DNA of 64,000 nt from Haliotis rufescens (lineage: Eukaryota). Positions 7,768-62,954 of the stretch are shown in pieces. Every line of letters starts with the position of its first letter. The stretch's first letter is position 1. The DNA lies in assembly GCF_023055435.1 (NCBI RefSeq), contig NW_025964001.1, forward strand, positions 30,504,001-30,568,000, given 5' to 3'. A program made the translations under genes and the position numbers. The notes beneath the pieces were generated by a model, which was given only the letters and a program-made list of their open reading frames with translations, did no database searches and was not told where the DNA came from.

Positions 7768-7778
7768 TTGTGTTCTAG

Positions 7779-8601: not shown

Positions 8602-8687
8602 GATGATACTTCGATGATACTTTGATGATACTTTGATGATACTTCGATGATACTTCGATGATACTTCGATGATACTTCGATGATACT
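8602..8687. repeat. 11-bp tandem repeat
   Basis: (gatgatacttc)n. Confidence 0.9.
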
Positions 8688-9055
8688 CCATTTTTGGTGT
8701 AGATAACATGCAGCTCAGACACGAACAGTGAAAGGGGGATCTAGTTATGGGTGCTGTTCTTCTGTCTGTCCATCCGTCACATTTCGTTACAGGGCAAAAC
8801 TAAAAAACTATGAGAAATATCTTTACCAAACTTGGCACATACATAGGTCTATTGGTGAACTGGTGCCTTTTGGTAGTTTGGAAATTAAAAAAAAGAATAT
8901 TTTTTTTAGTTTCCATGGCAACGACTTTGACTTAGACTGAAAGTGGGGATCAGCCCGTTGTCTGAATATGGCCTTGCTGGTGCATGTGTGTCAACTATGT
9001 TTTATTTTTCTTGTTTATAAAATATCAACTATTTCTACTTTTTATTTGAGAGCAG

Positions 9056-9159
9056 TTTTCAATCTGTCCAATGGTATTGATGTCGAGAGCACACGCAAGA
9101 TGATAGAACAGTACAGGAAGGACAACAAAGATCAGATCAAGAAAAACCTTTCAAAAATG
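9056..9159 (+). CDS. MNAT1: MNAT1 exon 4
   Basis: VFNLSNGIDVESTRKMIEQYRKDNKDQIKKNLSKM; gcag / gtaaac. Confidence 0.93.
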
Positions 9160-9340
9160 GTAAACAATTTTATTTTATTTTTATTCCTGTTTTCTAGCAC
9201 TGATCTACAATGCAATTTTGTGTGTCCAAAGGCATGATGTCAGTGTACTGTGTTTACAGATGGGCAAACACCCCTCGCTTACTTACTCTCACTAACTGAC
9301 ACAATAATTGAAAGTATTTACCTGTGTTATAAACATACCT

Positions 9341-24976: not shown

Positions 24977-25209
24977 CTACTCCCCCTCAGCGGGAACTGT
25001 TTGTCCCTGGTAACTCTGTGTGGGCTCTGGTTCGTCAACATGTTTGGTATATTTAGGACCTTTGGATTCATTTGATGATTTCAGACTAACACGCTCAGAT
25101 TCAATGCCGTCGCTCTTCAGGTAAAAATGAAAGCCTATATTGAGTTCTGGGATGTCGTAAATAACCGCAACTAGCAGCATCATCATTATAAGTCCAAGGA
25201 GGAGGTACC
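24977..25209 (-). CDS. KCNK1: K2P channel exon 4 (M4 + C-tail) with stop
   Basis: (G)YLLLGLIMMMLLVAVIYDIPEL...PAEGE*; acceptor TGTTTCAG; YLLLGL is the TWIK M4 motif. Confidence 0.92.
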
Positions 25210-25464: not shown

Positions 25465-25863
25465 CTGTGGTGGCAACTTTGTACAGCGCCCTGTAGTGTT
25501 GTTGCCAGTTGTCGCCGGGGATGTAGTCGCCCAGACCGACGGTAGTGAGGGAGATGAAGCAGTAGTAGAAGGCGTCCAGGTAGTTCCAGTCGGGTTCAAG
25601 TGCAGTGTAAATACCAGCGGGGATGAGGAAGAAAAACGTGAAGATGAAGGAGAAGACGATGAAGAGGTGGAGGAGCTGGATGTGGAAGACCTTGTAGATG
25701 TGCCCCAGCTGCCGGAACAGGAAGTACAGGAACATCTTGGTGGGGAGCATGAGCCGCTCCACCACAGCCGTGAACAGAATGAGTGTCAGGGGAATGCCTA
25801 TCACAGCGTACACGATACAGAACGCCTTGCCGGCGTCAGAGAGTGGAGTCACTCGACCGTAAC
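25465..25863 (-). CDS. KCNK1: K2P channel exon 3 (GYG, M2, M3, pore 2)
   Basis: YGRVTPLSDAGKAFCIVYAVIGIPLTL...WNYLDAFYYCFISLTTVGLGDYIPG; GLG in the second filter is typical of the TWIK subfamily. Confidence 0.95.
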
Positions 25864-26544: not shown

Positions 26545-26688
26545 CTATGGTCGTGAGCACAGTCCCAGCAAAGAACATTGATTGGCCGAAACTCCAGTTG
26601 GGTTCAGACATGGACACATTGCGAGCTGCCGAGACTCCCCTGTTAGCAGCCTCAACGACCTCAACAATGAAGGCCTCTAGAGCTTGCT
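26545..26688 (-). CDS. KCNK1: K2P channel exon 2 (second cap helix, pore helix 1)
   Basis: (E)[47 protein letters not shown](G); TTTCAG / GTAAGA; not shown in the ORF track. Confidence 0.93.
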
Positions 26689-27544: not shown

Positions 27545-28382
27545 AGGGTGAGGTAAGTGGTGTGTATGGGAAGGTAGGTGGTGCTGGGTGTGAGGTAAGT
27601 GGTGTGTATGGGAAGGTGGGTGGTGCTGGGGTTGAGGTAAGTGGTGTGTATGGGAAGGTAGGTGGTGCTGGGGTTGAGGTAAGTGTTGTGTATGGGAAGG
27701 TAGGTGGTGCTGGGGGTGAGGTAAGTGGTGTGTATGGGAAGGTAGGTGGTGCTGGGGGTGAGGTAAGTGGTGTGTATGGGAAGGTAGGTGGTGCTGGGGG
27801 TGAGGTAAGTGGTGTGTATGGGAAGGTAGGTGGTGCTGGGGTTGAGGTAAGTGGTGTGTATTGGAAGGTAGGTGGTGGTGGGGCTGAGGTAAGTGGTGTT
27901 TTTGATGAGGTAGGTGGTGCTGGGGGTGAGGTAAGTGTTGTGTATTGGAAGGTAGGTGGTGCTGGGGGTGAGGTAAGTGGTGTTTTTGATGAGGTAGGTG
28001 GTGCTGGGGGTGAGGTAAGTGGTGTGTATGGGAAGGTAGGTGGTGCTGGGGGTGAGGTAAGTGGTGAGTATGGGAAGGTAGGTGGTGCTGGGGTTGAGGT
28101 AAGTGGTGTGTATGGGAAGGTAGGTGGTGCTGGGGGTGAGGTAAGTGGTGTGTATGGGAAGGTAGGTGGTGCTGGGGGTGAGGTAAGTGGTGTGTATGGG
28201 AAGGTAGGTGGTGCTTGGGGTGAGGTAAGTGGTGTGTATGGGAAGGTAGGTGGTGCTGGGGTTGAGGTAAGTGGTGTGTATGGGAAGGTAGGTGGTGCTA
28301 GGGGTGAGGTAAGTGTTGTGTATGGGAAGGTAGGTGGTGCTTGGGTTTGACGTAAGTGGTGTGTATGGGAAGGTAGGTGGTG
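27545..28382. repeat. 42-bp G-rich minisatellite, degenerating to about 28610
   Basis: Unit gaggtaagtggtgtgtatgggaaggtaggtggtgctgggggt. Confidence 0.95.
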
Positions 28383-28908
28383 TTGGGTGTGTAGTAGGTT
28401 ATGCTTGGTGAGAGGTAGTTGGTATTGGGTGTCGGGTAAGTGGTGTTGGGTGTGGGGGTGGTAGGTGATGCTGGGTTAGGGATAGGTGGGTTGGGTGGGA
28501 AGTAGGTGGTGTTGGGCGTGTGGGGGGCCGGTGCTTGGTGTGTAGTAGGTGACGCTGGGTGGGGGATAGGTGGTGTTTGGTGTGATGTATTTGTTGCTGG
28601 GGGTGAGGTTGGTTCCGTTCGAGGGAAGAAGGTGATACCGTTATGGATACCGAAAAGGACATTAAACTACATAAACTACAGAAAAATATGTCGAGCTCAC
28701 TTCCTATTTATCATGTTTTTTCTAAAACAATTTTCAACAAATCGCGAAAAAAACACCGTCAGTTGACTCACGGTCATTCAACTCAGTTGTGACCTTTCAA
28801 GCCAGAAATCAGTTGCCCTTTGGTTACATGAACGTCAGCTAATACTAGTTGTCTAACAGAGTAAATTGTCAATTAACACATTTTGTTATAATTGCGTATA
28901 CATATGAT

Positions 28909-29145
28909 TTGTTTGTTTGTTGACGCCGCGCTCAGCAGTATTCCAGCTATATGACGGCGGTCTGTAAATAATTGAATCTCGACCAGACAATCCAGTGATT
29001 GATATCATAAGCATCGATGCACGTTATTATAATACGATGACATGTATCAACCAAGTCAGCGAGCCTGACCACCCAATCCCGTTAGTCGCCTCTTACGACA
29101 AGTATGGGTTGCTGAAGACCTATTCTAACCCGGATCTTCAAGGGG
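28909..29145 (-). mobile_element. Short retroposon family C
   Basis: Full-length reverse copy. Confidence 0.82.
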
Positions 29146-30261
29146 CGTATAAGTATGGTGACGAGTTGCATTCAAAATGTCTTCCATAGTCTCCAACCTG
29201 AACAAAATCGGTGGCAGAAGTCACACGGGATACAAAAACCGACACTATTATGGCTATTGGACTGTTTCCTTCTCTACCGCATGCACCTTTCGTAAGGATA
29301 ACATGGTGACATGCATCTAATGTGGGCGCATCGACCTATGTAAGGAAACAGTTGCACAAATACAGCTGAATTTTCAATAAGCATATGTTGTTCTATACAC
29401 TACCGATTACAAAGCCAGGCCGTTACAACACAGATGTCAGCGAACGGCTACAACAAATCAATTGATTTCATCTGTGCGAGTTAATTCAGGGTCTCCTCTC
29501 ACTGTAATGCTACAGTCACTAACCGTGAGTAATCAAAATATAAATTGTCAATGCAAGAGAATAACCAGCCTTAGATTTTCTGCAGAAACAGATTCCACTT
29601 GGTGTAAAGGGAAAAAAATGTGGAAATTATACGAATGAACCACTGAAAATCAGTGATGAAACCAGGTGTTCGCGAAAAGGGTAAGCATGTCCTAAGCTGA
29701 GGGTTAGCCTTCCTTCTTTCGTCTCTAGGAGAAAGCTTATAATAGCCACGGAGTCATATACACTTACCGACGAAAAACGATACATGTTGGTTAATATATA
29801 AAGATATACTCATATTCTAGATATATTAGATTAGTTCGACGAACTAACGAACATACTGGTTTTTCGCGAAAAGGGTTAACATGTCCTTCCCTCCCGGTAG
29901 CACCCGCCATTAATACAATTTGCATAAAAAACGTAGGTATTTATTGCCTGACGCAGCACAACAGTAATCCTGCCATGCGTCGTCAGCCTGTAAACAAACC
30001 AGGAAATCAAGTGATCTATGTCACAGAAAATCCTGTGACCCGAGAGTACCGTTACTGATTTTGTTGGAACCAATACAAACGGTACGTTAATTTTGAATTA
30101 CGTCTGTTGTGTACAAGACCTGAGAGTTTGCTGCTTATAAGTAAAGGAAAGCGCTAAGAAATTTATTCTTTATTTAAAGTCTCGGTTGATTTGTTTGTCT
30201 TAACGACAGAAGCTGTTTCAGTTTGGACATGGTCCCACGAGGTTCATATTTGCCTTGCAAC

Positions 30262-31838
30262 CAGTCCTGCTTGCACCCATCCACATAGTCAGTCCTGCTT
30301 GCACCCGCCCACATAGTCAGTCCTGCTTGCACCCACCCACATAGTCAGTCCTGCTTGCACCCACCCACATAGTCAGTCCTGCTTGCACCCACCAACATAG
30401 TCAGTCCTGCTTGCACCCACCCACATAGTCAGTCCTGCTTGCACCCACCAACATAGTCAGTCCTGCTTGCACCCATCCACATAGTCAGTCCTGCTTGCAA
30501 CCACCCACATAGTCAGTCCTGCTTGCAACCACCAACATAGTCAGTCCTGCTTGCAACCACCCACATAGTCAGTCCTGCTTGCACCCACCCACATAGTCAG
30601 TCCTGCTTGCACCCACCAACATAGTCAGTCCTGCCTGCACACACCAACATAGTCAGTCCTGCTTGCAACCACCCACATAGTCAGTCCTGCTTGCAACCAC
30701 CAACATAGTCAGTCCTGCTTGCAACCACCGACATAGTCAGTCATGCTTGCAACCAACCACATAGTCAGTCCTGCTTGCAACGAACCACATAGTCAGTCCT
30801 GCTTGCAACCAACCAACATAGTCAGTCCTGCACCCACCCACATAGTCAGTCCTTCTAGCAACCACCGACATAGTCAGTCTTGCTTGCAACCACCCACATA
30901 GTCAGTCCTGCTTGCACCTACCAACATAGTCAGTCCTGCTTGCAACCACCTACATAGTCAGTCTTGCTTGCAACCACCCACATAGTCAGTCCTGCTTGCA
31001 ACCACCAACATAGTCAGTCCTGCTTGCACCCACCAACATAGTCAGTCCTGCTTGCACCCACCAACATAGTCAGTCCTGCTTGCAACCACCAACATAGTCA
31101 GTCCTGCTTGCACCTACCAACATAGTCAGTCCTGCTTGCACCCACCAACATAGTCAGTCCTGCTTGCACCCACCAACATAGTCAGTCCTGCTTGCAACCA
31201 CCAACATAGTCAGTCCTGCTTGCACCCACCAACATAGTCAGTCCTGCTTGCAACCACCCACATAGTCAGTCCTGCTTGCACCCACCAACATAGTCAGTCC
31301 TGCTTGCAACCACCGACATAGTCAGTCCTGCTTGCAACCACCAACATAGTCAGTCCTGCTTGCAACCACCAACATAGTCAGTCCTGCTTGCACCCAGCAA
31401 CATAGTCAGTCCTGCTTGCAACCACCTACATAGTCAGTCCTGCTTGCAACCACCCACATAGTCAGTCCTGCTTGCACCCACCAACATAGTCAGTCCTGCT
31501 TGCAACCACCATCATAGTCAGTCCTGCTTGCAACCACCCACATAGTCAGTCCTGCTTGCACCCACCAACATAGTCAGTCCTGCTTGCACCCACCAACATA
31601 GTCAGTCCTGCTTGCAACCACCAACATAGTCAGTCCTGCCTGCAGCCACCGACATAGTCAGTCCTGCTTGCAACCACCAACATAGTCAGTCCTGCTTGCA
31701 ACCACCAACATAGTCAGTCCTGCTTGCAACCACCAACATAGTCAGTCCTGCCTGCAGCCACCGACATAGTCAGTCCTGCTTGCAACCACCAACATAGTCA
31801 GTCCTGCTTGCAACCACCCACATAGTTAGTCCTGCTTG
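30262..31838. repeat. 28-bp minisatellite
   Basis: Unit cagtcctgcttgcaaccaccaacatagt. Confidence 0.95.
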
Positions 31839-32146
31839 AGTATTACACTCTCAATAACCAGTTGACAATTATCTGCACCCCATAGTACCTATAAAACAAC
31901 GGGTTAGAGACAACACGACAAAGACCCAAAGTGTATGACAAGAACATTGCGTATGATGTTCTCGACCTGTTATTTTGGCCAATTGGTGGAAAGATATCAA
32001 ATTGAACAAGGCACATATAATTTACCCTCACTGATACAGTGGACATATTCCTTGGGACAGACATTTCATTTCATGGGGCGGGATGGTCTCGGTGGCCGGG
32101 GAGTCCTTTTCAAAGTTTTTTCCACAAAAAGAAGAAATTCTATGTT

Positions 32147-33541
32147 TTTCTTAACAGATGTGTGTTCTGTCTCACACCGGACATAATGGGTGTTCTTAAC
32201 AGATGTGTATCCTGTCTCACACCGGACATAATGGGTGTTCTTAACAGATGTGTATCCTGTCTCACACGGGACATAATGGGTTTTCTTAACAGATGTGTAT
32301 CCTGTCTCACACCGGACATAATGGGTGTTCTTAACAGATATGTATTCTGTCTCACAAGGGACATAATGGGTGTTCTTAACAGATGTGTTTTCTATCTCAC
32401 ACCGGACATAATGGGTGTTCTTGACAGATTGTATTCTGTCTCACAAGGGACATAATGGGTGTTCTTAACAGATGTGTATTCTGTCTCACACGGGACATAA
32501 TGGGTGTTCTTAACAGATATGTATTCTATCTCACACAGGACATAATGGGTGTTCTTCACAGATTGTATTCTATCTCACACGGGACATAATGGGTGTTCTT
32601 GACAGATGTGTATTCTGTCTCACACCGGACATAATGGTGTTCTTAACAGATGTGTATCCTATCTCTCACGGGACATAATGGGTGTTCTTAACAGATGTGT
32701 ATTCTGTCTCACACGGGACATAATGGGTGTTCTTGACAGATGTGTATTCTGTCCCACACGGGACATAATGGGTGTTCTTAACAGATGTGTGTTCTGTCTC
32801 ACACCGGACATAATGGGTGTTCTTAACAGATGTGTATCCTGTCTCACACGGGACATAATGGGTTTTCTTAACAGATGTGTATCCTGTCTCACACCGGACA
32901 TAATGGGTGTTCTTAACAGATATGTATTCTGTCTCACAAGGGACATAAAGGGTGTTCTTTACAGATGTGTATTCTGTCTCACACAGGACATAATGGGTGT
33001 TCTTAACAGATGTTTATTCTGTCTCACACCGGACATAATGGGTGTTCTTAACAGATGTGTATCCTGTCTCACACCGGGCAAAATGGTGTTCTTAACAGAT
33101 GTGTATTCTATCTCACACAGGACATAATGGGTGTTCTTGACAGATTGTATTCTGTCCCACACCGGACATAATGGGTGTTCTTAACAGATATGTATTCTGT
33201 CCCACACCGGACATAATGGGTGTTCTTAACAGATATGTATTCTGTCTCACACCGTACATAATGGGTGTTCTTAACAGATGTGTATCCTGTCTCACACCGG
33301 GCAAAATGGTGTTCTTAACAGATGTGTATTCTGTCTCACACAGGACATAATGGGTGTTCTTAACAGATATGTATTCTGTCTCACACCGGACATAATGGGT
33401 GTTCTTAACAGATGTGTATCCTGTCTCACACCGGACATAATGGGTGTTCTTAACAGATGTGTATCCTGTCTCACACCGGACATAATGGGTGTTCTTAACA
33501 GATTGTATTCTGTCTTACACAGGACAAAATGGGTGTTCTTC
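32147..33541. repeat. 45-bp minisatellite
   Basis: Unit ttcttaacagatgtgtattctgtctcacaccggacataatgggtg. Confidence 0.95.
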
Positions 33542-34079
33542 TCAGTGAGAACATACGTTGCCAAAAAGATATTATCAGATATACATCACATGATGAACAT
33601 GTGTCATATTGGATAACACGACCGTATTGATATTCAAAACAAATTATGAATTGGGAATATTATGAATGTCTACAAGCATCTCATGAAAGTATAATGTCAT
33701 TATTTTGTAATGTGATGTAAACGTACACATGCGTTATGCAGTATGCTGGTACCAGTCGCCATGGTAATTATCACTATGGCAGTTTTCAATATAAGGAAAG
33801 AGTGTCCGTCATGAAATATTAGAATGTTTTTTGCATCACTGACTGTACGTAATGTTCATTATATTGCATATGAAATTACATTCATTCAATCAAACAGCTT
33901 GAATTCCGAAGCAAAAACCTATTTTTATTAATTCAGGAACTAAACACCCATATATACAGTGAGGTTTCAAGTCTGTCTCCATCTGATATAGGTTTCAGTG
34001 TTCTGCTGGGTATTCCTAACATGTCGGTCGGGTTACAGTACTGTTACGGTTTTGTTACCATCTACAGTACAGTACAGTA

Positions 34080-35392
34080 CAATATTCCCATCTGCCTTAT
34101 AGGCTATGAATGTTGCAGCAATATTCCCATCTGCCTTATAGTCTATGAATGTTGCAAAAATATTCCAATCTGCTATATAGTCTATGAATGTTGCAACAAT
34201 ATTCCCATCTGCCTTATAGTCTATGAATGTTGCAGCAATATCCCCATCTGCCTTATAATCTATGAATGTTTCAGCAATATTCCCATCTGCCTTATAGTCT
34301 ATGAATGTTTCAACAATATTCTCATCTGCCTTATAATCTATGAATGTTGCAACAATATTCCCATCTGCCTTATAGTCTATGAATGTTTCAGCAATATTCC
34401 CATCTGCCTTTTAGTCTATGAATGTTGCAACAATATTCCCATCTGCATTATCGTCTATGAATGTTTCAGCAAAATTCCCATCTGCCTAATAGTCTATGAA
34501 TATTTCAGCAATATTCCCATCTGCCTTATAGGCTATGAATGTTGCAACAATATTCTCATCTGCCTTATAGTCTATGAATGTTTCAGCAATATTCCCATCT
34601 GCCTGATAATCTATAAATGTTTCAGAAATATTCCCATCTGCTATAAGGTATATGAACGTATCAGTGTACGTATCTGCCATATAGTCCATGTGTGCTGCGG
34701 CAATGTACCCATCTGCTATATAATCATCTGTTATATAGTCTATGAATGTTGCAACAATATTCCCATCTGCCTTATAGTCTATGAATGTTTCAGCAATATT
34801 CCCATCTGCCTTTTAGTCTATGAATGTTGCAACAATATTCCCATCTGCATTATCGTCTATGAATGTTTCAGCAAAATTCCCATCTGCCTTATAGTCTATG
34901 AATATTTCAGCAATATTCCCATCTGCCTTATAGGCTATGAATGTTGCAACAATATTCTCATCTGCCTTATAGTCTATGAATGTTTCAGCAATATTCCCAT
35001 CTGCCTGATAATCTATAAATGTTTCAGAAATATTCCCATCTGCTATAAGGTATATGAACGTATCAGTGTACGTATCTGCCATATAGTCCATGTGTGCTGC
35101 GGCAATGTACCCATCTGCTATATAATCATCTGTTATATAGTCTATGAATGTTTCAGCAATATTACCATCTGCCTTATAATCTATAAATGTTTCAGAAATA
35201 TTCCCATCTGCTGTATAGTCTATGAATGTTGCAGCAATATTCCCATCTGCCTTATAATCTATGAATGTTGCAGCAATATTCCCATCTGCCTTATAGTCCA
35301 TGAATGTTTAAGCAATATTCCCATCTGCTATAAGGTATATGAACGTATCAGTGTACGTATCTGCCATATAGTTCATGTGCCCACCTGCTATA
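34080..35392. repeat. 39-bp minisatellite with a 402-bp higher-order duplication
   Basis: Unit aatattcccatctgccttatagtctatgaatgttgcagc; variant block recurs at 34651, 35053 and 35338. Confidence 0.95.
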
Positions 35393-36545
35393 TACCACTT
35401 CACTTCCACAGTTTTAAAGAGACGTCATCTTTGAATACTATAGTTGAAAGCACTTAAACTCAAGCTCAAAGATGATCCTACATGATCTGTATTTCATGTC
35501 TATGTATTGTATTCCCCACACCCCTATTGGATAAGTACTATCCAAGAGAAACCATCGAGTCAGTGAAATACATTTCCTCATTCGCAATCGCATAAACCTT
35601 GTTGTACATTAGCCTTGACGTGAATGTCCTCCTATATCCTCCCGCTCCTTTGATGACGGAGTGTAAAGATGCGTTAATAACGCACTGCTGATACGTGTGG
35701 ATTGTAAGTGTTAATTATATGTCTCCTGGTATTGTTTATGAATCTGTGTTGGTTCCGACCGACTAGACTTGCACATCTGTCTCCTGTACTTCCCTAGCTG
35801 TGCACAACGCTAATACACTACACTAGGTCAAACAAGTTCCGTAGCGTCATCATATAAGCATCAACATGTTTTCTACTCGTACATCGAAATATGATCCGTG
35901 GTTGTCTGCATGGATGGGATCACCTTCATGTATGGATTAACTGCGCTTTGTGAAGCATGGTTGATTCAGATTGAACTTAAATAAAGGATCTAGTGATGAG
36001 TAAAATTGATTTATTCATCAGCAGTCATTAAAACGGTATAACGCGTTAGAGAAAGAGATTGATATTACCATTGAGGAACAGTTATTCATTATTTCGCTGG
36101 TTATATTTCACAGCAAAGGATTCAAATATAACTTCATCATTTCAGATACATTCATGTCACGTTTTAAGTCGATGCAACAGTAAAGATTATCTACAGGCGG
36201 TAAATGATTCGGATAATTCACATCCTTATCCTGACTAAATGCTCAACAAAGGCATTATCTCAGTTGGAAACGAGAGCACATTATCACAGTTGTGTGACAA
36301 AAACAAAATCACGCATTTATACTGATAATCGTAAACAAACCCCAAAGCAGTTTCTCCCGAAAGCTCCTCGTTGCAACTAACCAATGCGTTATCTGCTGTT
36401 GCTTCGACCTGACAATTGACCACGAAGCTACAGGATTAATTACAGTTTATATTCACAACACCTTTATGCGCGACATATGGTGAACCGCCTCTCCAGAATT
36501 GTCAGTTATGTACATATGTTGTTTAAATCCCATGCTGATACTTAC

Positions 36546-36750
36546 CAGATAAACAGGAATTTTCCTTAAGAAACTTTTTCCTCTCAAATTTCAGGTTTTT
36601 GACTATGTCATCTTCCAGCGGACGCTCTAGCACTTGGAAGATTGCTGCCCCAAAGCAGATGTAAAGTACGAGAAACAGACAGAGTGAAATAAACTTGATA
36701 GTCGGTATGGCACAGCGGCGCTGCAAGCTGTCATCCATGTTGGAGTGCAT
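36546..36750 (-). CDS. KCNK1: TWIK-family K2P channel, alternative first coding exon 1b (M1 helix + cap helix)
   Basis: (MHSN)MDDSLQRRCAIPTIKFISLCLFLVLYICFGAAIFQVLERPLE...KENSCLS; phase-1 donor CTG|GTAAGT; start at 36750 or 36738. Confidence 0.88.
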
Positions 36751-37163
36751 ACCATATGAAATGTCACCAGATATAATCACCAACAACTACATCATTTCGG
36801 AGAGTCTACTCAGTAGAAGGGGCGTCAGGTTGTAATCGATGCTAGGTTATTTATTATAACACCTGTTTCTCCATTAACAAGAGACTGTCATGTGACACAT
36901 ATTGAGGAGAGGGTGTGATCTATTGCAGTTTACCTGCCATTGTCGATGTTAATGGAACATGAATGCAAAATTTTAGCTGAGGCATACTGTTGTAATTACT
37001 CAGTCGGCCGAGTGCATCTATTATCTGACACACACCACGTAAATAACAGAGAGAAAAAGGAATTCCAAAATCAGTTGATTTTCGCGTTTACCGTCGTTTA
37101 GCAACTGTTCCATTGGAGATTCATCATGCCTTCTCACGTTCAGGTTTACTAGCTAAATGAAAG

Positions 37164-38940
37164 TGTCCCGCACACCCGTGTCATGCTACACAATAACACT
37201 GTCCCACACACTCGTGTCATGCTACACAATAACACTGTCCCACACACTCGTGTCATGCTATGCAATAACACTGTCCCACACACTCGTGTCATGCTATGCA
37301 ATAACACTGTCCCACACACTCGTGGCATGCTACACAATAACACTGTCCCACACACATGTGTCATGCTATGGAATAACACTGTCCCACACACTCGTGTCAT
37401 GCTACACAATAACACTGTCCCACACACTCGTGTCATGCTATGCAATAACACTGTACCACACACTCGTGTCATGCTACACAATAACACTGTCCCACACACT
37501 CGTGTCATGCTATACAATAACACTGTCTCACACACCCGTGTCATGCTACACAATAACACTGTCTCACACACTCGTGCCATGCTATACAATAACACTGTCT
37601 CACACACCCGTGTCATGCTACACAATAACACTGTACCAAACACTCGTGTCATAATACACAATAACACCGTCTGTCACACTCGTTTCATGCTATACAATAA
37701 CAATGCCTCACACACTCGTGTCATGCTACACAATAACACCGTACCACACACTCGTGTCATAATACACAATAACACTGTCTCACACTTGTGTCATGTTATA
37801 CAACAACGCGGTCTCACACACTCGTGTCATGCTACACAATAACACTGTACCACACACTCGTGTCATGCTATACAATAACGCGGTCTCACACACTCGTGTC
37901 ATACTACACAATAACTCTATCTCACACATTCGTGTCATGCCATACAAAAACACTGTCTCAAACAATCGTGCCATGCTATACAATAACACTGCCCCACACA
38001 CTCGTGTCATGCTATGCAATAAGACTGTTCCACACACTCGTGGCATGCTATGCAATAACACTGTACCACACACTCGTGTCAAGCTATACAATAACACTGT
38101 CTCACACACTCGTGTCATGCTACACAATAACACTGTACCACACACTCGTATCATAATACACAATAACACCGTCTCACACACTCGTGTCATGCTATACAAT
38201 AACACTGTCCCACACATTCGTGACATGCTATACAGTAACACTGTCTCACACACTCGTGTCATGCTATACAATAACACTGTCTCACACGCTCGTGTCATGC
38301 TATACAATAACACTGTCTCACACACTCGTGTCATGCTATGCAATAACACTGTCCCACACACTCGTGTCATGCTATATAATAACACTGTCTCACACACCCG
38401 TGTCATGCTATGCAATAAGACTGTTCCACAAACTCGTGGCATGCTATGCAATAACACTGTACCACACACTCGTGCCATGCTATACAATAACACTGTCTCA
38501 CACACTCGTGTCATGCTATGCAATAAGACTGTCCCACACACTCGTGGCATGCTATGCAATAACAATATCCCACAAACTCGTGTCATGCTATGAAATAACA
38601 ATGTCCCACACACTCGTGTCATGCTATACAATAACACTGTCTCACACACTCGTGCCATGCTATACAAAAACACTGTCTCACACATTCGTATCATGCTATA
38701 CAATAACACTGTCTCACACATTTGTGTATGCTACACAATAACACTGTCTCATACACTCGTGTCATACTATACAATAACAATGTCCCACACACTCGTGTCA
38801 TGCTATACAATAACAATGTCCCATACACTCGTGTCATGCTACACAATAACACTGTCTCACACACTCGTGTCATGCTACACAATAACACTGTCTCATACAC
38901 TCGTGTCATGCTACTCAATGGTACTGTCCCACAAACTCGA
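37164..38940. repeat. 36-bp minisatellite
   Basis: Unit cacacactcgtgtcatgctacacaataacactgtcc. Confidence 0.95.
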
Positions 38941-38981
38941 GTGAAACTGCACCACGCAGTTAAGTAGTGCTTCACAGTCGT

Positions 38982-39886
38982 ATTGACAGGGGCTAGATGA
39001 CTCCGTTGCAGGGATGTTTAGTGCACATATAGACAGATGCTAGATGCCAGACTTGCTGGGATATATAGTGCACATATTGACAGGGGATATTCAGCTGGGC
39101 AGAAGGCTGATTTACTCCACATATTGACCAGAGATAGATGCCTCGGTTGCTGGGAGATCTAGTGCATATAGTGACAGGGGATAGATATCTGGCCTGCTGG
39201 GTGATCAAGTTCACATATTGACAAGGGCTAGATGCCAGACTTGCTGGGAGATCTAGTGCATATAGTGACAGGGGCTAGATATCCGGCCTGCTAGGTGATC
39301 AAGTTCACATATTGACAAGGGCTGGATGCCAGACTTGCTGGGAGATCTAGTGCATATAGTGACAGGGGCTAGATATCCGGCCTGCTGAGTGATCAACTTC
39401 ACATAATGACAAGGGCTAGATGCCAGACTTGCTGGGAGATCTAGTGCATATAGTGACAGGGGCTAGATATCCGGCCTGCTGAGTGATCAAGTTCACATAT
39501 TGACAAGGGCTAGATGCCAGACTTGCTGGGAGATCTAGTGCATATAGTGACAGGGGCTAGATATCCGGCCTGCTAGGTGATCAAGTTCACATATTGACAA
39601 GGGCTGGATGCCAGACTTGCTGGGAGATCTAGTGCATATAGTGACAGGGGCTAGATATCCGGCCTGTTGGGTGATCAAGTTCACATATTGACAAGGGCTA
39701 GATGCCAGACTTGCTGGGAGATCTAGTGCATATAGTGACAGGGGCTAGATATCCGGCCTGCTGAGTGATCAAGTTCACATATTGACAAGGGCTAGATGCC
39801 AGACTTGCTGGGAGATCTAGTGCATATAGTGATAGGGGCTAGATATCTGATCTGCTGGGTGATCAAGTTCACATTATGACAAGGGC
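38982..39886. repeat. 94-bp repeat (diverged 47-bp dimer)
   Basis: Alternating tgacaagggctagatgccagacttgctgggagatc / tgacaggggctagatatccggcctgctgagtgatc halves. Confidence 0.92.
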
Positions 39887-40630
39887 TCTCACAGACTAGA
39901 CAGACAGGTCCATGCAGCCACGAGGCCACTCTCACAGACTAGACAGACAGGTCCATGCAGCCACGAGGCCACTCTCACAGACTAGACAGACAGGTCCATG
40001 CAGCCACGAGGCCACTCTCACAGACTAGACAGACAGGTCCATGCACCTACGAGGCCACTCTCACAGACTAGACAGACAGGTCCATGCAGCCACGAGGCCA
40101 CTCTCACAGACTAGACAGACAGGTCCATGCACCTACGAGGCCACTCTCACAGACTAGACAGACAGGTCCATGCAGCCACGAGGCCACTCTCACAGACTAG
40201 ACAGACAGGTCCATGCACCTACGAGGCCACTCTCACAGACTAGACAGACAGGTCCATGCAGCCACGAGGCCACTCTCACAGACTAGACAGACAGGTCCAT
40301 GCACCTACGAGGCCACTCTCACAGACTAGACAGACAGGTCCATGCAGCCACGAGGCCACTCTCACAGAGAAGACAGACAGGTCCATGCAGCCACGAGGCC
40401 ACTCTCACAGACTAGACAGACAGGTCCATGCAGCCACGAGGCCACTCTCACAGACTAGACAGACAGGTCCATGCAGCTATGAGGCCATTCTCACAGACAA
40501 GACAGACAGGTCCACGCAGCTATGAGGCCACCCTTACAGACAAGACAGAGAGTTCAATGCAGCCACGAGGCCACCCTTACAAACAAGACAGACAGGTCCA
40601 TGCACCTACGAGGTCACTCACATACACAAG
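39886..40630. repeat. 43-bp minisatellite
   Basis: Unit ctctcacagactagacagacaggtccatgcagccacgaggcca. Confidence 0.95.
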
Positions 40631-40982
40631 ACAAACGTCGATTAGTCGTTCCTTTTCCCTTGTCTCTGTCTTAGCATAGACGTATCTTGATGGCTTACCT
40701 TAGATCTGTTGCCATCCCCAAATTCTTCAGTCAAATTGCAGTCTCTCAGTCAAAATATTCAGCGAAACCATACAATACTAACTAGTTATTATGCTCAGCT
40801 GGACCTTTCACGGCCAAGTAGTTCAGCAAAGAAGTAAGTCAAACGAAATTTAACATTTTATGAACGCATCTACAAGAAGATGAACAGAAGTACACATCCT
40901 GGTACCATTAACATGTATCTGAAATAGCGGATACCGGTATGTGCGAGCGTACATGTTCCTTCATTGCCTGGTATCATACATG

Positions 40983-41464
40983 TATATGTTACACCCAATG
41001 TGTGCAACTGCCCATTGCGTGTCATGGGCAGGCCCTTTGCCCAGCTTGCCCAATGCTTTCAATTGACAGTGACGTGTATGAGTTTTAAACTCTTATTCAC
41101 AAAAGTCAAAAGGACAAAGTTATTTTATAAGGATCTATTCACCGAGTCTTAAGATCACATATTTGTTTGGATGTTATTTATTACAGTTTATTCACTTAAT
41201 AACAGAGTTTACTTTATTTAAAACCAAACATGTAAAACAATACCAATTTCAATTGCTGCTTTGGACAGAACAATTACCTGCCTATTGCGTGAAATGAGCA
41301 AGCTGGTTGCCCATATTGTGAACTATTTGGATAATTACTTTTCATTCACAGCTATTGCTCATTGCATGCAATACGCAGATAATTGTTTGCCCATTGCACG
41401 CATTGGGCAAACGGCCTGCCCAATGCACGCAATGTGCAGTTGCACAGATTAGGTGTAACATATA
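40983..41464. mobile_element. Foldback / long-TIR MITE
   Basis: About 60-bp imperfect inverted termini tatatgttacacccaatgtgtgcaactgc / gcagttgcacagattaggtgtaacatata. Confidence 0.7.
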
Positions 41465-42488
41465 CATATGAACAATATGATTCGTGTTGTATATGTATCT
41501 GATATCAGATGGTATCGTATATAACATCATAGTGTAGGATTCAAATGTATCGCGCATTTCCTGAAAATACTTTCATTGTCAGTATGTGGCTAATATTAAT
41601 AATAACAATTTGCGCGGTTCAAACATGACTGTGGCAAGGATACCCTGGAGAATACAAACGGAACACAGGCCGGGGTGGAATACAACCCCATCGGCCACGC
41701 CCGTCCCTTCCTCGCGCCACAGTTACCCTTGGCATTAACTAAATCGATTGTTCCCATGCAATAACACAAATCTCTTTGACATGAGAATAAATCGTCTTTT
41801 TTATGATAACGCCATTGTGAACTTTAGACTCGTTTCTATTGAATCATTACCAATTGGTACAACAATTGGTAAATACCCCGGGGACACAGAGAATGGATGA
41901 CTGCTACAGAAAACTGTTAATCCCGGGACATCACAGCTACAGCTGATATCGGTAATTCGGTAATTACCTAACCATAAACTATATACTTCAATGAGTCGGG
42001 GACATTTAGCCGACACCTTCCACAGTTTGACGTCTGCGCCAGAAGCTGGTGAATATACTTTCCGTCTGTTATTTTACCATTGATTATGAAATGACCGAAT
42101 AATGACTGCCTAATCGCTACGAATATAGTGCTGACATTTCTCCAACATAAAAAGGAGAGCCAGCTAGTTTGATAGTCTAGGAAACAGTGTTTCGCCATAG
42201 TAAGTGTTGCCACGGCCTTACAGATGCCCACAAATGTCCAATAAACAAGATAATGCAAACAGAAGCTGACACAAGTCATGCAGAGACAGGCACCGTCAGA
42301 CTGAATCACCAATCACCAGTCTGCTAGACCTGGTCGAGGACTGCTGCTGGCCGTTCTCATTGACCTTCCACCAGCCCACCATATGGTAGCATCATGTGCC
42401 GCTGTTTTCAAGCGTAACCTCTTTTGGAGGTGTCTGTGTTGTGTGAGAATGATTTAATAACATGGAATCTGAAATGAGAGAGTGTTAC

Positions 42489-42672
42489 CTGACAGGCAGT
42501 GTTGATAGGACGCACGGAATGTGTTTCTGACAGTCTGGAGATGCTTGACCAGGCTTGATTCTCGAGGGCCTTCTATTGCTGCGAATATCGCTGCTCCGAT
42601 GATAAGGAACAGAACATAGAATACGCACAAGGCAATCAGTCGCACGTTACTACGTCTCAGTTCGGTGAGCAT
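42489..42672 (-). CDS. KCNK1: TWIK-family K2P potassium channel, alternative first coding exon 1a (M1 helix + cap helix)
   Basis: MLTELRRSNVRLIALCVFYVLFLIIGAAIFAAIEGPRE...YQHCLS; GAxxFxxxE-x-P-x-E M1 motif and cap Cys; phase-1 donor CAG|GTAACA; upstream acceptor TTCCTTGCAG at 42761. Symbol denotes the KCNK1/6/7 co-orthologue. Confidence 0.88.
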
Positions 42673-42977
42673 GTTGCTTACTGTATGTCGGGTCCGTTCC
42701 CTCTCAGCACCGACGTGCACAACACGAGCAGACGACGCTAGCGGGATCAGTGTAGTGTTCCTGCAAGGAAACTGGGTGCTGTATTGATCGCGAAAGACAG
42801 GCCTTGACGCAGCTACGTCCAGTGATCAGGGATTCCTTCAAGGTCAAGCTTTGGGAAATCCCACTAATGGCGTCATACAATATCTGTCAGCGTACTATTG
42901 AGTTGTGCATGTGGACTAGTGTTTGGGATGGTATCACCGTCTGGGGAGGTCGATGGTGGCAGTAGGGATTGGGCGAA

Positions 42978-45478
42978 GACACCGGCGGTATAGTGTTGGT
43001 CTGGTGACACTGGCAGTATAGTGTTGGTCTAGTGACACTGGCAGTATAGTGTTGGTCTGGTGACACTGGCAGTATAGTGTTGCTCTAGTGACACTGGCAG
43101 TATAGTGTTGGTCTGGTGACACTGGCAGTATAGTGTTGGTCTAGTGACACTGGCAGTATAGTGTTGGTCTGGTGACACTGGCAGTATAGTGTTGGTCTAG
43201 TGACACCGGCGGTATAGTGTTGGTCTGGTGACACTTGCAGTATAGTGTTGCTCTAGTGACACTGGCAGTATAGTGTTGGTCCAGTGACACTGGCAGTATA
43301 GTGTTGGTCTGGTGACACTGGCAGTATAGTGTTGGTCTAGTGACATCGGCGGTATAGTGTTGGTCTGGTGACACTGGTAGTATAGTGTTGGTCTAGTGAC
43401 ACTGGCAGTATAGTGTTGGTCTGGTGACACTGGCAGTATAGTGTTGGCCTGGTGACACTGGCAGTATAGTGTTGGTCTGGTGACACTGGCAGTATAGTGT
43501 TGGTCTGGTGACACTGGCAGTATAGTGTTGGTCTAGTGACACTGGCAGTATAGTGTTGGTCTGGTGACACTGGCAGTATAGTGTTGCTCTAGTGACACTG
43601 GCAGTATAGTGTTGGTCTGGTGACGCTGGCAGTATAGTGTTGGTCTAGTGACGCTGGCAGTATAGTGTTGGTCTGGTGACGCTGGCAGTATAGTGTTGGT
43701 CTGGTGACGCTGGCAGTATAGTGTTGGTCTGGTGACGCAGGCAGTATAGTGTTGGTCTGGTGACGCTGGCAGTATAGTGTTGGTCTAGTGACACTGGCAG
43801 TATAGTATTGGTATAGTGACACTGGCAGTATAGTGTTGGTCTAGTGACGCTGGCAGTATAGTGTTGGTCTGGTGACACTGGCAGTATAGTATTGGTATAG
43901 TGACACTGGCAGTATAGTGTTGGTCTAGTGACACTGGCAGTATAGTGTTGGTCTGGTGACACTGGCAGTATAGTGTTGGTCTGGTGACACTGGCAGTATA
44001 GTATTGGTATAATGACACTGGCAGTATAGTGTTGGTCTAGTGACACTGGCAGTATAGTGTTGGTCTGGTGACACTGGCAGTATAGTGTTGGTCTGGTGAC
44101 ACTGGCAGTATAGTGTTGGTCTGGTGACACTGGCAGTATAGTGTTGGTCTGGTGACACTGGCAGTAAAGTGTTGGTCTAGTGACACTGGCAGTATAGTGT
44201 TGGTCTAGTGACACTGGCAGTATGGTGTTAGTCTAGTGACACTGGCAGTATAGTGTTGGTCCAGTGACAATGGCAGTATAGTGTTGGTCAAATGACACTG
44301 GCAGTATAGTGTTGGTCCAGTGACACTGGCAGTATAGTGTTGGTCCAGTGACACTGGCAGTATAGTGTTGGTCTTGTGACACTGGCAGTATAGTATTGGT
44401 CTAGTGACACTGGCAGTATAGTATTGGTCTAGTGACACTGGCAGTATAGTGTTGGTCTGGTGACACTGGCAGTATAGTGTTGGTCTAGTGACACTGGCAG
44501 TATAGTGTGGGTCTAGTGACACTGGCAGTATAGTGTTAGTCTAGTGACACTGGCAGTATAGTGTTGGTCCAGTGACAATGGCAGTATAGTGTTAGTCTAG
44601 TGACACTGGCAGTATAGTGTTGGTCTTGTGACACTAGCAGTATAGTATTGGTCTAGTGACACTGGCAGTATAGTATTGGTCTAGTGACACTGACAGTATA
44701 GTATTAGTCTAGTGACACTGGCAGTATAGTGTTAGTCTAGTGACACTGGCAGTATAGTGTTAGTCTTGTGACACTGGCAGTATAGTATTGGTCTAGTGAC
44801 ACTGGCAGTATAGTGTTGGTCTAGTGACACTGGCAGTATAGTATTGGTCTAGTGACACTGGCAGTATAGTATTAGTCTAGTGACACTGGCAGTATAGTGT
44901 TGGTCTAGTGACACTGGCAGTATAGTGTTTGTCTAGTGACACTGGCAGTATAGTGTTGGTCTAGTGACACTGGCAGTATAGTGTTGGTCTAGTGACACTG
45001 GCAGTATAGTGTTAGTCTAGTGACACTGGCAGTATAGTGTTGGTCTGGTGACACTGGCAGTATAGTGTTGGTCTAGTGACACCGGCGGTATAGGGTTGGT
45101 CTGGTGACACTGGCAGTATAGTGTTGGTCTAGTGACACTGGCAGTATAGTGTTGGTCTTGTGACACTGGCAGTATAGTATTGGTCTAGTGACACTGGCAG
45201 TATAGTGTTGGTCTAGTGACACTGACAGTATAGTGTTGGTCTGGTTACAATGGCAGTATAGTGTTAGTCTGGTGACACTGGCAGTATAGTGTTGGTCTAG
45301 TGACACTGGCAGTATAGTATTGGTCTAGTGACACTGGCAGTATAGTGTTGGTCTAGTGACACTGGCAGTATAGTATTGGTCTAGTGACACTGGCAGTATA
45401 GTATTGGTCCAGTGACACTGGCAGTATAGTATTGGTCAGGTGACACTGGCAGTATAGTGTTGGTCTAATGACACTGGC
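42978..45478. repeat. 28-bp minisatellite, about 89 copies
   Basis: Unit gacactggcagtatagtgttggtctagt with internal ACACT/AGTGT inverted repeat. Confidence 0.96.
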
Positions 45479-47702: not shown

Positions 47703-49347
47703 TGAGGCCTGGTCTAAAAGTTCTAAGCCTGACTAACTATCAAATAAACAAAGTGAACTAGTCAATGTAGTACATTGTTTGTGTAGTTCATTGCAAGTAT
47801 ATTTAGTCTGTTGACGCCGTTTGTATTTTAGTGACAGCCAGTTGAATGTAATAGGGGTCCAAATAGACACAGAAATGGAAAAGAATGAGTACCGTGCAGA
47901 GTACCGTACTCCCCAAGAAATTCATGACCGCATGTCAAAAGTGTATGGGTATAAGTGCTCTACCTATTCCACTGTTAAACGCTGGGTAGCTATGTTTAAG
48001 GCTGGGAGAACAAGCCTTGATGATGACCCTAGGTCTGGACGTCCCTCAACTTCCATCAATGAAGATTCAGTCACGATGATAGAAACATGTATACTGTCAG
48101 ATAGACGTATTACCATTGCTTGAGCTGAGGAGGACACAGGTCTAAGCCATGAAACTATTGAAACTATTGTTCATGACTACTTACAGATGAATAACATAGT
48201 TGCTAGTTGGGTACCAAAGTTTCTAAATTCTGATCTTAAGGAAAAAGGAACTGACATTGCCAGAGAAAATGTAGAGCTAAGTGAGGAGGATTTCGTCAAA
48301 ATCATAAAAAGATTAGTAACGGGTGATGACGAATGGGTCTACCACAATGCTTCCGAGTTAAAACGTCAATCCATGCAATGGCACCATTCCACTTCTCCGG
48401 CACGAAAGAAATTTAAGTCTTTAAGATAAGTGAAGAAAGTTGTGGCCACTGTATTCAGGGATGCAAAGGGTGTTACTTGTTGATTACTTACAAAGATTAC
48501 TTACAAGGTAAAAGACGATTACCGGTGCCAGCTATGCTGATTTGCTTCATCGCCTGAGAAATTCTATAAAAGAAAAGTGGTGAGGAATTGTGATTACTAA
48601 TTATGACAATGCCTCTCCTCACACCTCTCGACAAAGGCTGTTGTGCAACAATGTGGGTTCGAAAAGCTTCCTCACCCTCCATATAATCATAATAATAATA
48701 AGTGCATTTATATGCGCCAGATTCCGTCATGCACATAGCGCTACGCTATTATTACCCCGGTCAATGGATCAGTGAGCACTCTTACATTCCCTGGTGAGTA
48801 TACAACCAAAGCTGCCTGTGAGGCGCTAGAAGATTAACAGACACCGGGTACCCACGTAACAAAGTCACTTGCCAAAGGAGACACCACATGTTGTATGTGC
48901 TTAGGTGTGGGTCAGGACCGAAGCCCCAGATACTGTGGTTTCGAAGCTGGAGTCAAGCTGCTTAACGTGGTCACCCATCCAACTACTCTCCGAGGCCGGC
49001 GTTGCTTAACTTCACCTGATTTATGATCTGTACGCTGTGCACAGGACCACGTGCCACCACGTAAGCCAGACGTGGCACCAAGTCATTTCGACCCGTTTCC
49101 TAAGCTGAAAGAACACCATGGAAAGGGCTAAGACGACAACGATGACCTCAATTGCCAAGCTGCCTTGAATGGGTTTTTCAGGGGGGCTTCAGAAATCTTC
49201 TTCCTGACTGGAATTGAAAACCTTCTTCACTATCGATATGAGGAGTTTATTAAAAAACAGGGAGATTATGTTGAAAAATAAAAATATAAACACTTTCACA
49301 ATTGTTGGTTTTGTTTGTTAGCCTTGGAACTTTTTGACCATCTCTCC
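47703..49347 (+). mobile_element. Full-length degenerate mariner transposon (pseudogenised DD34D transposase)
   Basis: HTH region TVKRWVAMFKAGRTSLDDDPRSGRP, WVPK, LVTGDDEWVYH, DNASPH and HPPY//KPDVAPSHF; imperfect TIRs tggtctaaaagttctaag / cttggaactttttgacca; stops and frameshifts. Confidence 0.9.
48685..49062 (-). mobile_element. 5S rRNA-related SINE (SINE3-like) with L2/CR1-type tail, inserted in the mariner
   Basis: Minus strand GAAGTTAAGCAACGCCGGCCTCGGAGAGTAGTTGGATGGGTGACC resembles 5S box A/IE/C; ends GCGCATATAAATGCAC(TTA)n. Confidence 0.7.
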
Positions 49348-53499: not shown

Positions 53500-53830
53500 T
53501 GACCTGTGTCATTAAGTTCAGCAATTTGGAGGCGGAGTCGTGATCTGGAGAGGAATATCTGTGTAGGTTTGAAGACGAAGCTGGTTATCTTTCAAAGCAA
53601 CATTACTGCACAGAGCTATCGGAATGAAGTTTTGCGATCCGCAAACAGACACGCAGTATTGTCTTTCAGCATAATAATGCTAGACCCGTTACTGCAAGGA
53701 TGACACGGAACTTCCTCAACAAAATGAACGTTCATGTGTTTCCATGGCTGGCATGTTCTCCTGACATGAACCCCATCGATCATTTGAGGGATCATCTTGA
53801 CAGGTCTTGCCAGTCTACCTTCAGGACCTG
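53500..53830 (+). mobile_element. Tc1 transposase fossil, C-terminal DDE part
   Basis: FQHNNARP and VFPWLACSPDMNPIDHLRDHLDR. Confidence 0.8.
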
Positions 53831-54130
53831 GAGCTATGTCTCATCGACCACAGGGGCTTGTAACGCAAAAAATAGCAGCTACAAGATATATGGTCATATA
53901 TGATATATGCTATATGAAAGGATATGGTATACTGACACTGGGTGTGACCATATATCTTGCAGCTGCTATTGTTTGTGTTACAGCCCCTGTGTCACGAGGT
54001 GGACATACTCAATATTACACCTGTGATTTATGACTTTGCAGTGACTTGTCTGTTGTCACACACATGTTTTGACAATGACGAAGTGAATGATCTTGACCCC
54101 CTGTATCTTTGTGCCATTGTCATGATTGTC

Positions 54131-54950
54131 ATGAGACAGTATCTCAATGAACAGACAAAATGGCGAATTGTGGACACGGTAGAGGGGGAAGGGACATCAA
54201 TGTCCCAAGTTGCCCGAATGTTTGACAAATCAAAAGGTTTAGTTTCTCGACTGTGGGACATATACTGTCAGAGGACTGGGGTTGCAGTGACACCTGGGAG
54301 TGGCAGGCCTAAAAAGGATACCGAGACAAGATCGTCTCATTACATTAATTACACTATGTAATAGATTCAAATCTGCTCCTGTTATCAATGGAGAACTCCA
54401 TACAATAACAGGAAAGTGAATGTCAACATCTACCGTTAAAAACCAGTTCTATGCAGCCAGCCTGAAAGCATGGGGTCCTGTGAAGGGTGTGACCCCAACA
54501 GCATACCATAGGTGGCAATAATTGGGGTGGGCTAGGCAACATCAGGGACGGGCTTTGTGCCAATGGCGTTTTACCTTCAATTCACAGATGGCAGAAAACG
54601 TTGTGGGCGAGGTAGCAGTGAGCCGGTATACCAGGGCAACCATTCTTGACCATGATCGGTATGGGGGCGGTAGTGTCATGGTGTGGGGTGGTATTACACA
54701 TGACGGGCGAACTGATTTGGTTATGTGAATGGACATTTGTCTGGTCAGCGATGTGATGTCGACATTTTGCGTCATGTCACTGTTCTATTCACTAGAATTA
54801 TTGGCAGAAAATTTGGACTGCAAGATGTCAATGCCAGACCACATAGTGGCCAGGTCATCAATGATTATCTCTGACGAGAAGACATACGGACATTGGACTG
54901 GCCCGCTAAGCACCCTGACATGTGCCCAGTAGACCCAGTGTAGGATGTTT
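54131..54950 (+). mobile_element. Second Tc1 transposase fossil, near full length and frameshifted
   Basis: Paired-like HTH SQVARMF...GSGRPKK, YGGGSVMVWGGIT, QDVNARPH and WPAKHPD. Confidence 0.82.
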
Positions 54951-61207: not shown

Positions 61208-61612
61208 ACTCATCATCACTCTCAACACAACACAAGTGATTTTGTTCTTGATGTCCAGCGATGGTACTTACTTCCATCATTTATGTTATGTTAATCAAAC
61301 AATAACGACAACTGTAAAAAGACAATACACTTCCATCCCTAGACGTGAAGTGGCTATGTTGTGCATGTTGGAAAACAGTTTTCAAAGGATTATCTGATAA
61401 AACTAATCATAGTTATCTACACTTTTCCACCAGTATTCGGAAAGCAAACTTGGCAACCATCAAATGGCTCTTCAATGCGCCAAATCATTTGTTGAATAAA
61501 ATAAACTTATACTTTTAGTATAAATGGTGCAGCAGATTCTCAGCATTATTATTTGTAGATAATGTTTAAACTTGTTGAAAGCTTGCAGTTTAGCATTACA
61601 TGTGTGTTACAG

Positions 61613-62340
61613 GCTGACCCCTTACAACTGAAGAGTTTGTTGTCACTGGTGCGAGCAGGTGCCCAGGGCCAGGATCTAGATAGAGTCACCTTGTCCTCAC
61701 TTGCACCAGCGTCCACTAAGCAGGTGGAGAAACCAAGGACTGAGCTGACTGTGACGTCCAGGAAGGAGTACCCAGTGACCAGCCGATTCCCGGCCAGCCT
61801 GGAGGTGCTCACTGTCCACTCCTGTGGCATGAAGCGCCTCGACCCCCGCATCTTGCATCTGTCCAGAATACACACACTTGACCTGAGTCTGAATGCTCTC
61901 ACATCCCTCCCAGATGACTGGGGTAGACTCAGCTGTGTGAGCACACTCATCCTCACTGACAACCAACTGTCAGAGATACCCTCTGCTCTGTGGAAGAGCC
62001 AGTTGTGTGAGACCATTGCCGTGTTGGATGTTCGTAACAACCATATAGCAACCATTCCCCTTCAGATATGTGAGCTCCACAAACTGGCCTGTCTCAGACT
62101 TGATAACAATGGTTTTGATTCACTGCCACCGACTATTGGCAAGCTTACCAACTTGAAAGAACTGGCCGTTGCGCAAAATAAGATAAAGGTCCTTCCAGCA
62201 GGATTTGCCCAACTCCGACTTGAAAATCTGGATGTGTCAGACAATCCATTTGACCTGAGTGTGGAAGGTGTGACAGGAGAAGAGCGACTTGTGTTCCCCA
62301 CCTTGATGGAGTGTGTGGCAAGAGCCATCAGAAAATACAG
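61613..62340 (+). CDS. LRR1: LRR1 exon 3 (leucine-rich repeats, BC-box region)
   Basis: Several LxxLxLxxN repeats followed by VFPTLMECVARAI; ttacag / gtttgc; phase 0-2. Confidence 0.93.
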
Positions 62341-62954
62341 GTTTGCCACACAGCTTTGTCTTCAGCTCAACCATTTCATGTCCCTACCATTTCAGCCATT
62401 TGAATTTTGTTTTGTTTTATAGATGACTTATGTATTCCTTGAGGAGACATTAGAACTTGTGTAATATCAATAGATATTATTGAGATCTAGCTGTTACCTT
62501 TTTTTCGTTTGTTGGAAATTTGGATTAAAAAAGTTCTTCGTGAAAGGCACGCACATTAGATAGACAATAATACTCATACATATAAGTAAGCTCAGTGTCG
62601 CATGTGGAAAAGTGAAACATGCCTCAGACTTGTTTCTGGATGATGACTTGCACAATATCGGAAGAGGTATTATTGTACCTGAAGCCATTATAAACTTTCT
62701 TGTTATGGTAACTGGATGCATAGGACGTTCACCAGAGGCAATGATATCACACTTGAAATGTATGCATATATATTATAAAACATTTTTATTTGGCATGCAC
62801 TTGGGGGACATTGGTCCAACAATTGTTTTTGTTTTCAGCATAAGAGCAGTTTGACATTAAGGCATTGTCTTAGGTCACTCATAACAGGTGTTATTAGCAA
62901 TCACTACTAATGTGTTGGAAATAAGTTGAGTATAATGGACTGCTGTTGTTTCAG

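Follow-up and report, generated by a model that had tools for sequence, protein, structure and literature searches.

A stretch of 64,000 nucleotides (64 kb) from the abalone Haliotis rufescens (RefSeq assembly GCF_023055435.1, contig NW_025964001.1, positions 30,504,001 to 30,568,000; hereafter the window, whose own numbering is used throughout) carries on its minus strand a gene that by its sequence codes for a potassium leak channel of the TWIK family of two-pore-domain (K2P) channels. The best overall explanation of its structure, which we hold with good confidence, is one gene with two first exons, 1a and 1b, and one shared set of pore exons (2–4, together called the body), yielding two subunits. 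For the product, a dimeric K+-selective leak current is predicted.

Table 1. Parts of the TWIK gene in the window (M1–M4, membrane helices)
Feature	Position	Strand	Remarks
Exon 1a, coding part	42489..42672	-	61 codons + 1 nt, translation as in P0004; from ATG 42672 to base 42489, then donor GTAACA; codes for a short N-terminus, M1, cap helix 1 and the apex Cys
5' leader of 1a	42673..42702	-	contig 42489-42702 of run X9
Polypyrimidine tract + AG, acceptor-like, upstream of 1a	42760..42780	-	candidate from sequence scan; AG ends at 42761
Exon 1b, coding part	36546..36738	-	64 codons + 1 nt, translation as in P0005; from ATG 36738 (a further in-frame ATG lies at 36750) to base 36546, then donor GTAAGT; codes for the N-terminus, M1, cap helix 1 and the apex Cys62
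Shared exon 2	26545..26688	-	acceptor TCAG, first base 26688; spliced in 4/4 runs; single copy; cap helix 2, N-glycosylation sequon, pore helix 1 up to the first filter
Shared exon 3	25465..25863	-	from the last part of filter 1 through M2, M3 and pore helix 2 to filter 2
Shared exon 4, coding part	24977..25209	-	M4 and C-terminus to the stop

The two first exons have separate start codons, both in a CAAC context, and finish alike, with Cys-Leu-Ser and a single G (phase 1), so that both join exon 2. The frames 1a+2+3+4 and 1b+2+3+4 contain no internal stops and correspond letter for letter to the proteins P0004 and P0005, which are identical to isoforms X2 and X1, respectively, of the KCNK1-like protein named 'potassium channel subfamily K member 1-like' in RefSeq (X1/X2: XP_046371559.2, XP_046371567.1; automatic annotation only). 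Exons 1a and 1b are homologous: BLASTP aligned them with 22 of 52 identical residues (42%, E 6e-08), and their Smith-Waterman score was 104, against a maximum of 49 among 5000 shuffles. A previous reading of this DNA, made from the sequence alone, had proposed a single pore body served by two alternative M1/cap exons, about 40% identical, both intact, both with the Cys-Leu-Ser end and a phase-1 donor that fits exon 2 at 26688, and no second set of pore exons between them; positions, translations, searches, a 1a contig and the isoform records of four Haliotis species bear this out. The introns around 1a and 1b (27546-45478) are full of minisatellites with units of 28, 36, 39, 42, 43, 45 and 94 bp, and most of the long open reading frames in this interval come from these arrays.

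The TWIK pore body is single-copy in the genome assembly (G000). A search with the whole protein gave 76-95% identity at the four TWIK exon places, 42% at exon 1b and 23-37% elsewhere; exon 2 alone had five matches, one of them significant, and exon 1b retrieved itself, 1a and one match with E 0.1. Within the window, the only significant tblastn matches of exons 2 and 4 were these exons themselves, and not a single N occurs between 26688 and 42672. A cluster of several other K2P-like genes was found on the same contig (G000:C223:14545868-14643618).

As no sequencing run was recorded as RNA, GT-AG splicing was taken as the sign of transcripts. Contigs over exons 2–4 were spliced at both introns in 4/4 runs and ran on from exon 4 into the 3' untranslated region to at least 24500. 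The join of 1a with exon 2 is directly seen in run X1, where one 917-nt contig spans exons 4, 3 and 2 plus 67 nt of 1a, and where the loose end at the 1a stretch reads into exon 2. The body contig of run X9 ends exactly at the exon-2 boundary and is overlapped by a separate 1a contig over 29-30 letters. This branch calls for another sequence upstream, either 1b or unspliced intron. Body contigs of two further runs extend beyond this boundary, by 48 letters in run X5 and by 204 in run X6, the latter extension being unplaced on the 1a stretch and of a length that fits 1b up to 36750. A contig on the 1a stretch was present in 3/4 runs and in none passed 42702; the upper bound drawn by the sequence-only reading, 42760, adjoins the acceptor-like AG. 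The missing 1a contig of run X6 may reflect a filter gap, and contig depths (12.6 vs 21.5 in run X9) were not used for ranking the isoforms. A possible internal donor at 42682, which could link the 1a leader to 1b, found no support, the contig of run X9 crossing this position unbranched.

The placement among TWIK channels was made from matches to solved structures, profiles and residue landmarks. Among solved structures KCNK1 (248 bits) and KCNK6 (195) match best, followed by TREK-2 and TASK-2 (149), and with this closeness to KCNK1/KCNK6, a GLG second filter and the apex cysteine the abalone proteins possess the traits of the subfamily. Each isoform contains two Ion_trans_2 stretches, pointing to two pore domains, and the model has four membrane helices. 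The pH sensor of TWIK-1, His122, is replaced by Arg in the abalone body, and Thr118 by Ile, hence the acid gating of TWIK-1 is not to be expected; the TWIK-2 chains also deviate from TWIK-1 at these positions. All four Haliotis species of the 8-member protein cluster (rufescens, cracherodii, asinina and rubra) have the isoform pair. Between H. rufescens and H. asinina, 54/61 residues are kept in 1a, 49/64 in 1b and 247/258 in the body, and across the three other species exon 1b keeps 49-62 of its 64 residues; by these comparisons 1a appears to be the slowly evolving and 1b the faster evolving type.

In the AlphaFold model of the 1b form, a helix at residues 12-59 is followed by a loop with Cys62 and by cap helix 2 (65-80), forming the two-helix extracellular cap between M1 and pore helix 1; the 1a form was placed by alignment, not folded. 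Cys62 aligns to residue 69 of rat TWIK-1, and exon 1b ends at residue 64, in the turn between cap helices 1 and 2. In K2P channels M1 is swapped between subunits, pore domain 1 being composed of M1 from one chain and of M2, pore helix and filter from the other (a passage of PMC8436263). Since the exon ends between the two cap helices and M1 is the part exchanged, model and alignment indicate that the duplicated exon encodes the domain-swapped element itself, i.e., M1 and cap helix 1 up to the apex cysteine. According to parts of PMC9184524, TWIK-1 is also domain-swapped, and a proline kink at TM1/CH1 moves cap and pore helix in gating, while the walls of its extracellular ion path lie under cap helix 2 and the filter linkers. 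In TASK-1, mutations in the cap reduce both the abundance of dimers and expression at the surface, and some K2Ps can do without the cap cysteine (both in passages of PMC4726246). The statement of the sequence-only reading that the M1/cap region governs extracellular access went too far as regards what the swapped exon controls directly, because the walls of the ion path are encoded by shared exons and the cysteine is dispensable in some K2Ps. Exon 1a additionally has a TASK-like basic N-terminal motif, noted here as a lead; the terms searched for are absent from PMC7617898.

We propose the following course of events. Each first exon would have a promoter of its own, which we consider probable from the ATG in CAAC context in either exon and from the weakness of the AGs upstream of 1b (36809, 36806), owing to which a transcript starting at 1a would skip 1b. 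Either exon would then be spliced to the same three pore exons, and the two resulting subunits, differing solely in N-terminus, M1 and cap helix 1, could assemble as a/a, b/b or a/b dimers, giving up to three versions of the channel. K2P heterodimers occur even between subfamilies (a passage of PMC13087257), and by analogy a/b heterodimers are likely to form where both subunits are co-expressed. The packing of M1 on the pore helix of the partner could alter trafficking or filter gating. We lean towards a functional difference between the subunits, situated most likely in surface delivery or filter gating and not in ion selectivity, a difference in which is unlikely because both filters are shared. 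The most far-reaching version, a protostome-ancestral module kept as two exons, with three functionally distinct channels and with apices that co-evolve to stay compatible with cap helix 2 and with each other, is put forward tentatively, as something we would sooner doubt than expect.

Pairs with the same body and different first exons were sought among 127 proteins; the breadth given here comes from the full-length search, as exon-only protein searches returned one cluster for 1b and none for 1a. Outside abalone the evidence consists of proteins, and the genomic exon order is that of the 64-kb window. Bodies 99-100% identical combined with first exons 28-42% identical were found in Littorina, Babylonia (two genes), Mercenaria, Aplysia, Lineus, Nilaparvata and Clastoptera, each pair inside a single named species, and similar pairs exist across close or unnamed records in Schistocerca, Rhipicephalus and a cephalopod. 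Cluster members added Octopus, Patella vulgata, Lingula, Owenia and Tenebrio, these five being judged by their N-termini and the first residues after the junction and not by whole-body identity. We take the pair-bearing taxa to represent Mollusca, Annelida, Brachiopoda, Nemertea and Arthropoda. By these protein sequences the layout appears to span five protostome phyla, and the 'ancient' duplication of the sequence-only reading was, if anything, understated. In two short DNA-derived records, P0136 and P0178 (Mytilus and termite-like), the match breaks off directly behind Cys-x-x-Gly, where the same intron would be expected to end it. Among the inspected members from Mytilus, spider, scorpion and aphid there was no b type (a only), and among members of six named deuterostome clusters no alternative M1; in both cases the 90% clustering can hide a partner. 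We know of no alternative M1/cap exon in vertebrate TWIK-1 or TWIK-2 (KCNK1, KCNK6). Babylonia areolata has two TWIK genes (P0026/P0047 and P0034/P0046) with both first exons kept in each. In heterodont clams the b-type exon may be present more than once: P0033, P0035, P0037, P0038 and P0039 have bodies 91-96% alike and b exons 38-58% alike, and the Mercenaria isoforms go up to X5.

The age of the exon pair was analysed on 23 a/b pairs; in 15 of them both exons come from the same named species, and the other 8 were paired across species or with unnamed records (the myriapod by eye). The landmark residues Gly, Glu, Pro and Cys recur in 22-23 of the 23 exons of either type, and the residue before the invariant Glu in M1 is Ile in 21/23 a and Leu in 16/23 b exons; in Tenebrio the apex cysteine is absent from both. 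A sequon for N-glycosylation lies near the cap apex in 6/23 b exons (abalone 1b being without it) and in 0/23 a exons. The exon tree splits a from b save for one long misplaced b row, with long b branches and an a/b support of 27/81; a tree of M1 only was no better resolved. Quartets favoured a shared duplication for Haliotis vs other gastropods (183/200 bootstraps), for molluscs vs Lingula/Owenia/Lineus (191/200) and for insects vs ticks/myriapod (166/200). One duplication in the spiralian ancestor is, on these sequences, likely, and one shared by spiralians and arthropods is the alternative that we prefer by a small measure. As to a descent of vertebrate TWIK-1 from a or from b, the profile scores lie just 3-4 bits apart, and a tree that included eight deuterostome rows (of which P0208 and P0266 were labelled vertebrate by resemblance to PDB chains) did not separate the two.

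Several points weigh against the picture drawn so far. The join of 1b with exon 2 is supported indirectly, via contigs and via RefSeq models for four species; that the runs are RNA is a guess; starts and tissues are beyond what contigs can reveal, and the raw-read runs available were miRNA libraries; and the acceptor-like site at 42761 may leave room for a shared upstream exon. As to age, the exon tree has only 56 columns and is poorly supported, and the a/b labels, being set by similarity, bias the analysis toward a shared origin. Approximately unbiased (AU) tests rejected a mollusc-only duplication alone, and marginally (p 0.033 among 6 tests), the other values being 0.47 for an all-a clade, 0.214 for arthropod a+b, 0.126 for Haliotis a+b, 0.063 for gastropods and 0.058 for insects. 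Moreover, the arthropod vs spiralian quartets favour independent origins in 149/200 bootstraps. Separate duplications in arthropods and spiralians, with M1 and cap helix 1 made an easily duplicated module by the phase-1 intron at the cap apex, are a serious rival that we place somewhat below even chances. It draws on these quartets, on the unrejected arthropod a+b clade, on a b-b identity across the two groups (0.295) lower than the a-b identity (0.328) and on the frequency of separate exon duplications in ion channels (a part of PMC9741552). Yet the quartet signal sits in the cap columns (194/200), whereas M1 columns lean to a shared origin (121/200), and it is at the apex that a and b co-vary within species, their identity there being 0.444 against 0.399 in block permutations (p 0.015; four regions were tested). 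An all-a clade costs just 1.1 log-likelihood units, and spiralian-b profiles scored 9/9 arthropod b exons above the a profiles, weakly, the b profiles being broader.

Mutually exclusive splicing could also produce both isoforms, with a single promoter and a non-coding exon upstream that the two have in common. For this speak the acceptor-like sites at 42761 and 42941, the 1a frame open from 42828 and the X1 isoforms of Lingula, Patella and Cryptotermes, in which the same exon has a longer N-terminus, a sign of 5' variation; the weak AGs ahead of 1b, the 1a contig of run X9, unbranched and with no loose end up to 42702, and the start codon inside each exon make it unlikely. We find it only a little less unlikely that 1b is a functionally neutral spare, the proteins behaving alike and the duplication providing two expression patterns: b does evolve faster than a and has long branches, and the a type stands alone among the inspected members of four groups, but b retains the structural landmarks across five phyla together with residues in M1 that distinguish it from a, and a promoter could be gained without retaining a second 60-residue coding exon. 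Finally, an orphan exon of a paralogue or an assembly artefact, which the sequence-only reading had named as a hazard, would accord with the lack of a direct contig for the 1b join; we consider it highly improbable, since G000 has a single TWIK body, the interval between the exons is free of N, and both isoforms are annotated in four independent Haliotis species and many other taxa. One gene with two first exons on a shared body remains the explanation that we prefer.

Its subunits are natural pairs with the same filters, M2–M4 and cap helix 2 and about 60% different in the swapped element, by which the contribution of this element, as well as an asymmetric a/b channel, becomes testable without designed chimeras. 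A 2021 review calls the role of domain swapping and of M1/cap in K2Ps unsolved (a passage of PMC8436263), and if three distinct channels are indeed built on one pore, the abalone gene would offer a natural chimera system for K2P gating and assembly. Expression and functional studies of invertebrate 'KCNK1', meanwhile, pool two different proteins.

Elsewhere in the window, exons of MAT1 (CDK-activating kinase assembly factor) lie at 5948-9234 (+), three frames matching PF06391 at successive profile positions, and a 287-codon frame with leucine-rich repeats, which we take to resemble LRR1, at 61559-62419 (+). A broken mariner-like transposase remnant with weak HTH_48/HTH_32 matches occupies 47815-48429 (+), and a Tc1-type remnant, recognised by eye and with no Pfam match, 53628-54358. 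A short stretch at about 48960-49030 (-) has by eye a 5S rRNA-derived look but no Rfam match at gathering score, at which no family was found anywhere in the 64-kb window.

The substitution of duplicated exons is an established class of event, overrepresented in ion channels and N-terminal in 40/236 human events (a part of PMC9741552). The abalone gene has two of its marks, homologous exons in one gene and long-term conservation of both copies, and with it K2Ps would join the ion-channel families that have ancient duplicated-exon switches. Section 16 of PMC9741552 names no K2P, and KCNK, Task6, Task7, Ork1, sandman and twk are absent from one of its supplements. Our literature search, covering titles and abstract openings with most subscription papers outside it, found no description of a duplicated M1/cap layout in K2Ps; both isoforms are already in public annotation, and it is the layout that is undescribed in the literature searched.

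The nearest likeness is to exons 12a/12b of protostome Cav3 (Lymnaea LCav3, Drosophila Ca-alpha1T), which, in passages of PMC4436565 and PMC9741552, are likewise tandem homologous exons, encode a cysteine-bearing extracellular segment next to the pore, persist throughout protostomes and do not occur as a pair in vertebrates. As far as these passages go, the Cav3 exons are internal and mutually exclusive, belong to a single-chain four-domain channel and switch Na+/Ca2+ selectivity, whereas those of the abalone K2P are first coding exons, include a whole membrane helix and leave the filters unchanged in a dimeric channel, where mixed dimers are possible. Exons 15a/15b of invertebrate NALCN (parts of the same two papers) are a duplicated-exon substitution in a leak channel, as here; they swap the selectivity filter itself, which the abalone TWIK isoforms share. 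With vertebrate TWIK-1 and TWIK-2 the abalone protein has in common the apex cysteine, the proline kink in M1 and the GLG second filter, while it differs from TWIK-1 by Arg and Ile in place of His122 and Thr118. Two M1/cap elements per channel are also found in the TASK-1/TASK-3, TREK-1/TWIK-1 and TASK-3/TWIK-1 heterodimers (a passage of PMC13087257), but there the subunits come from separate genes, whereas in abalone one gene would supply both, differing only in the swapped element.

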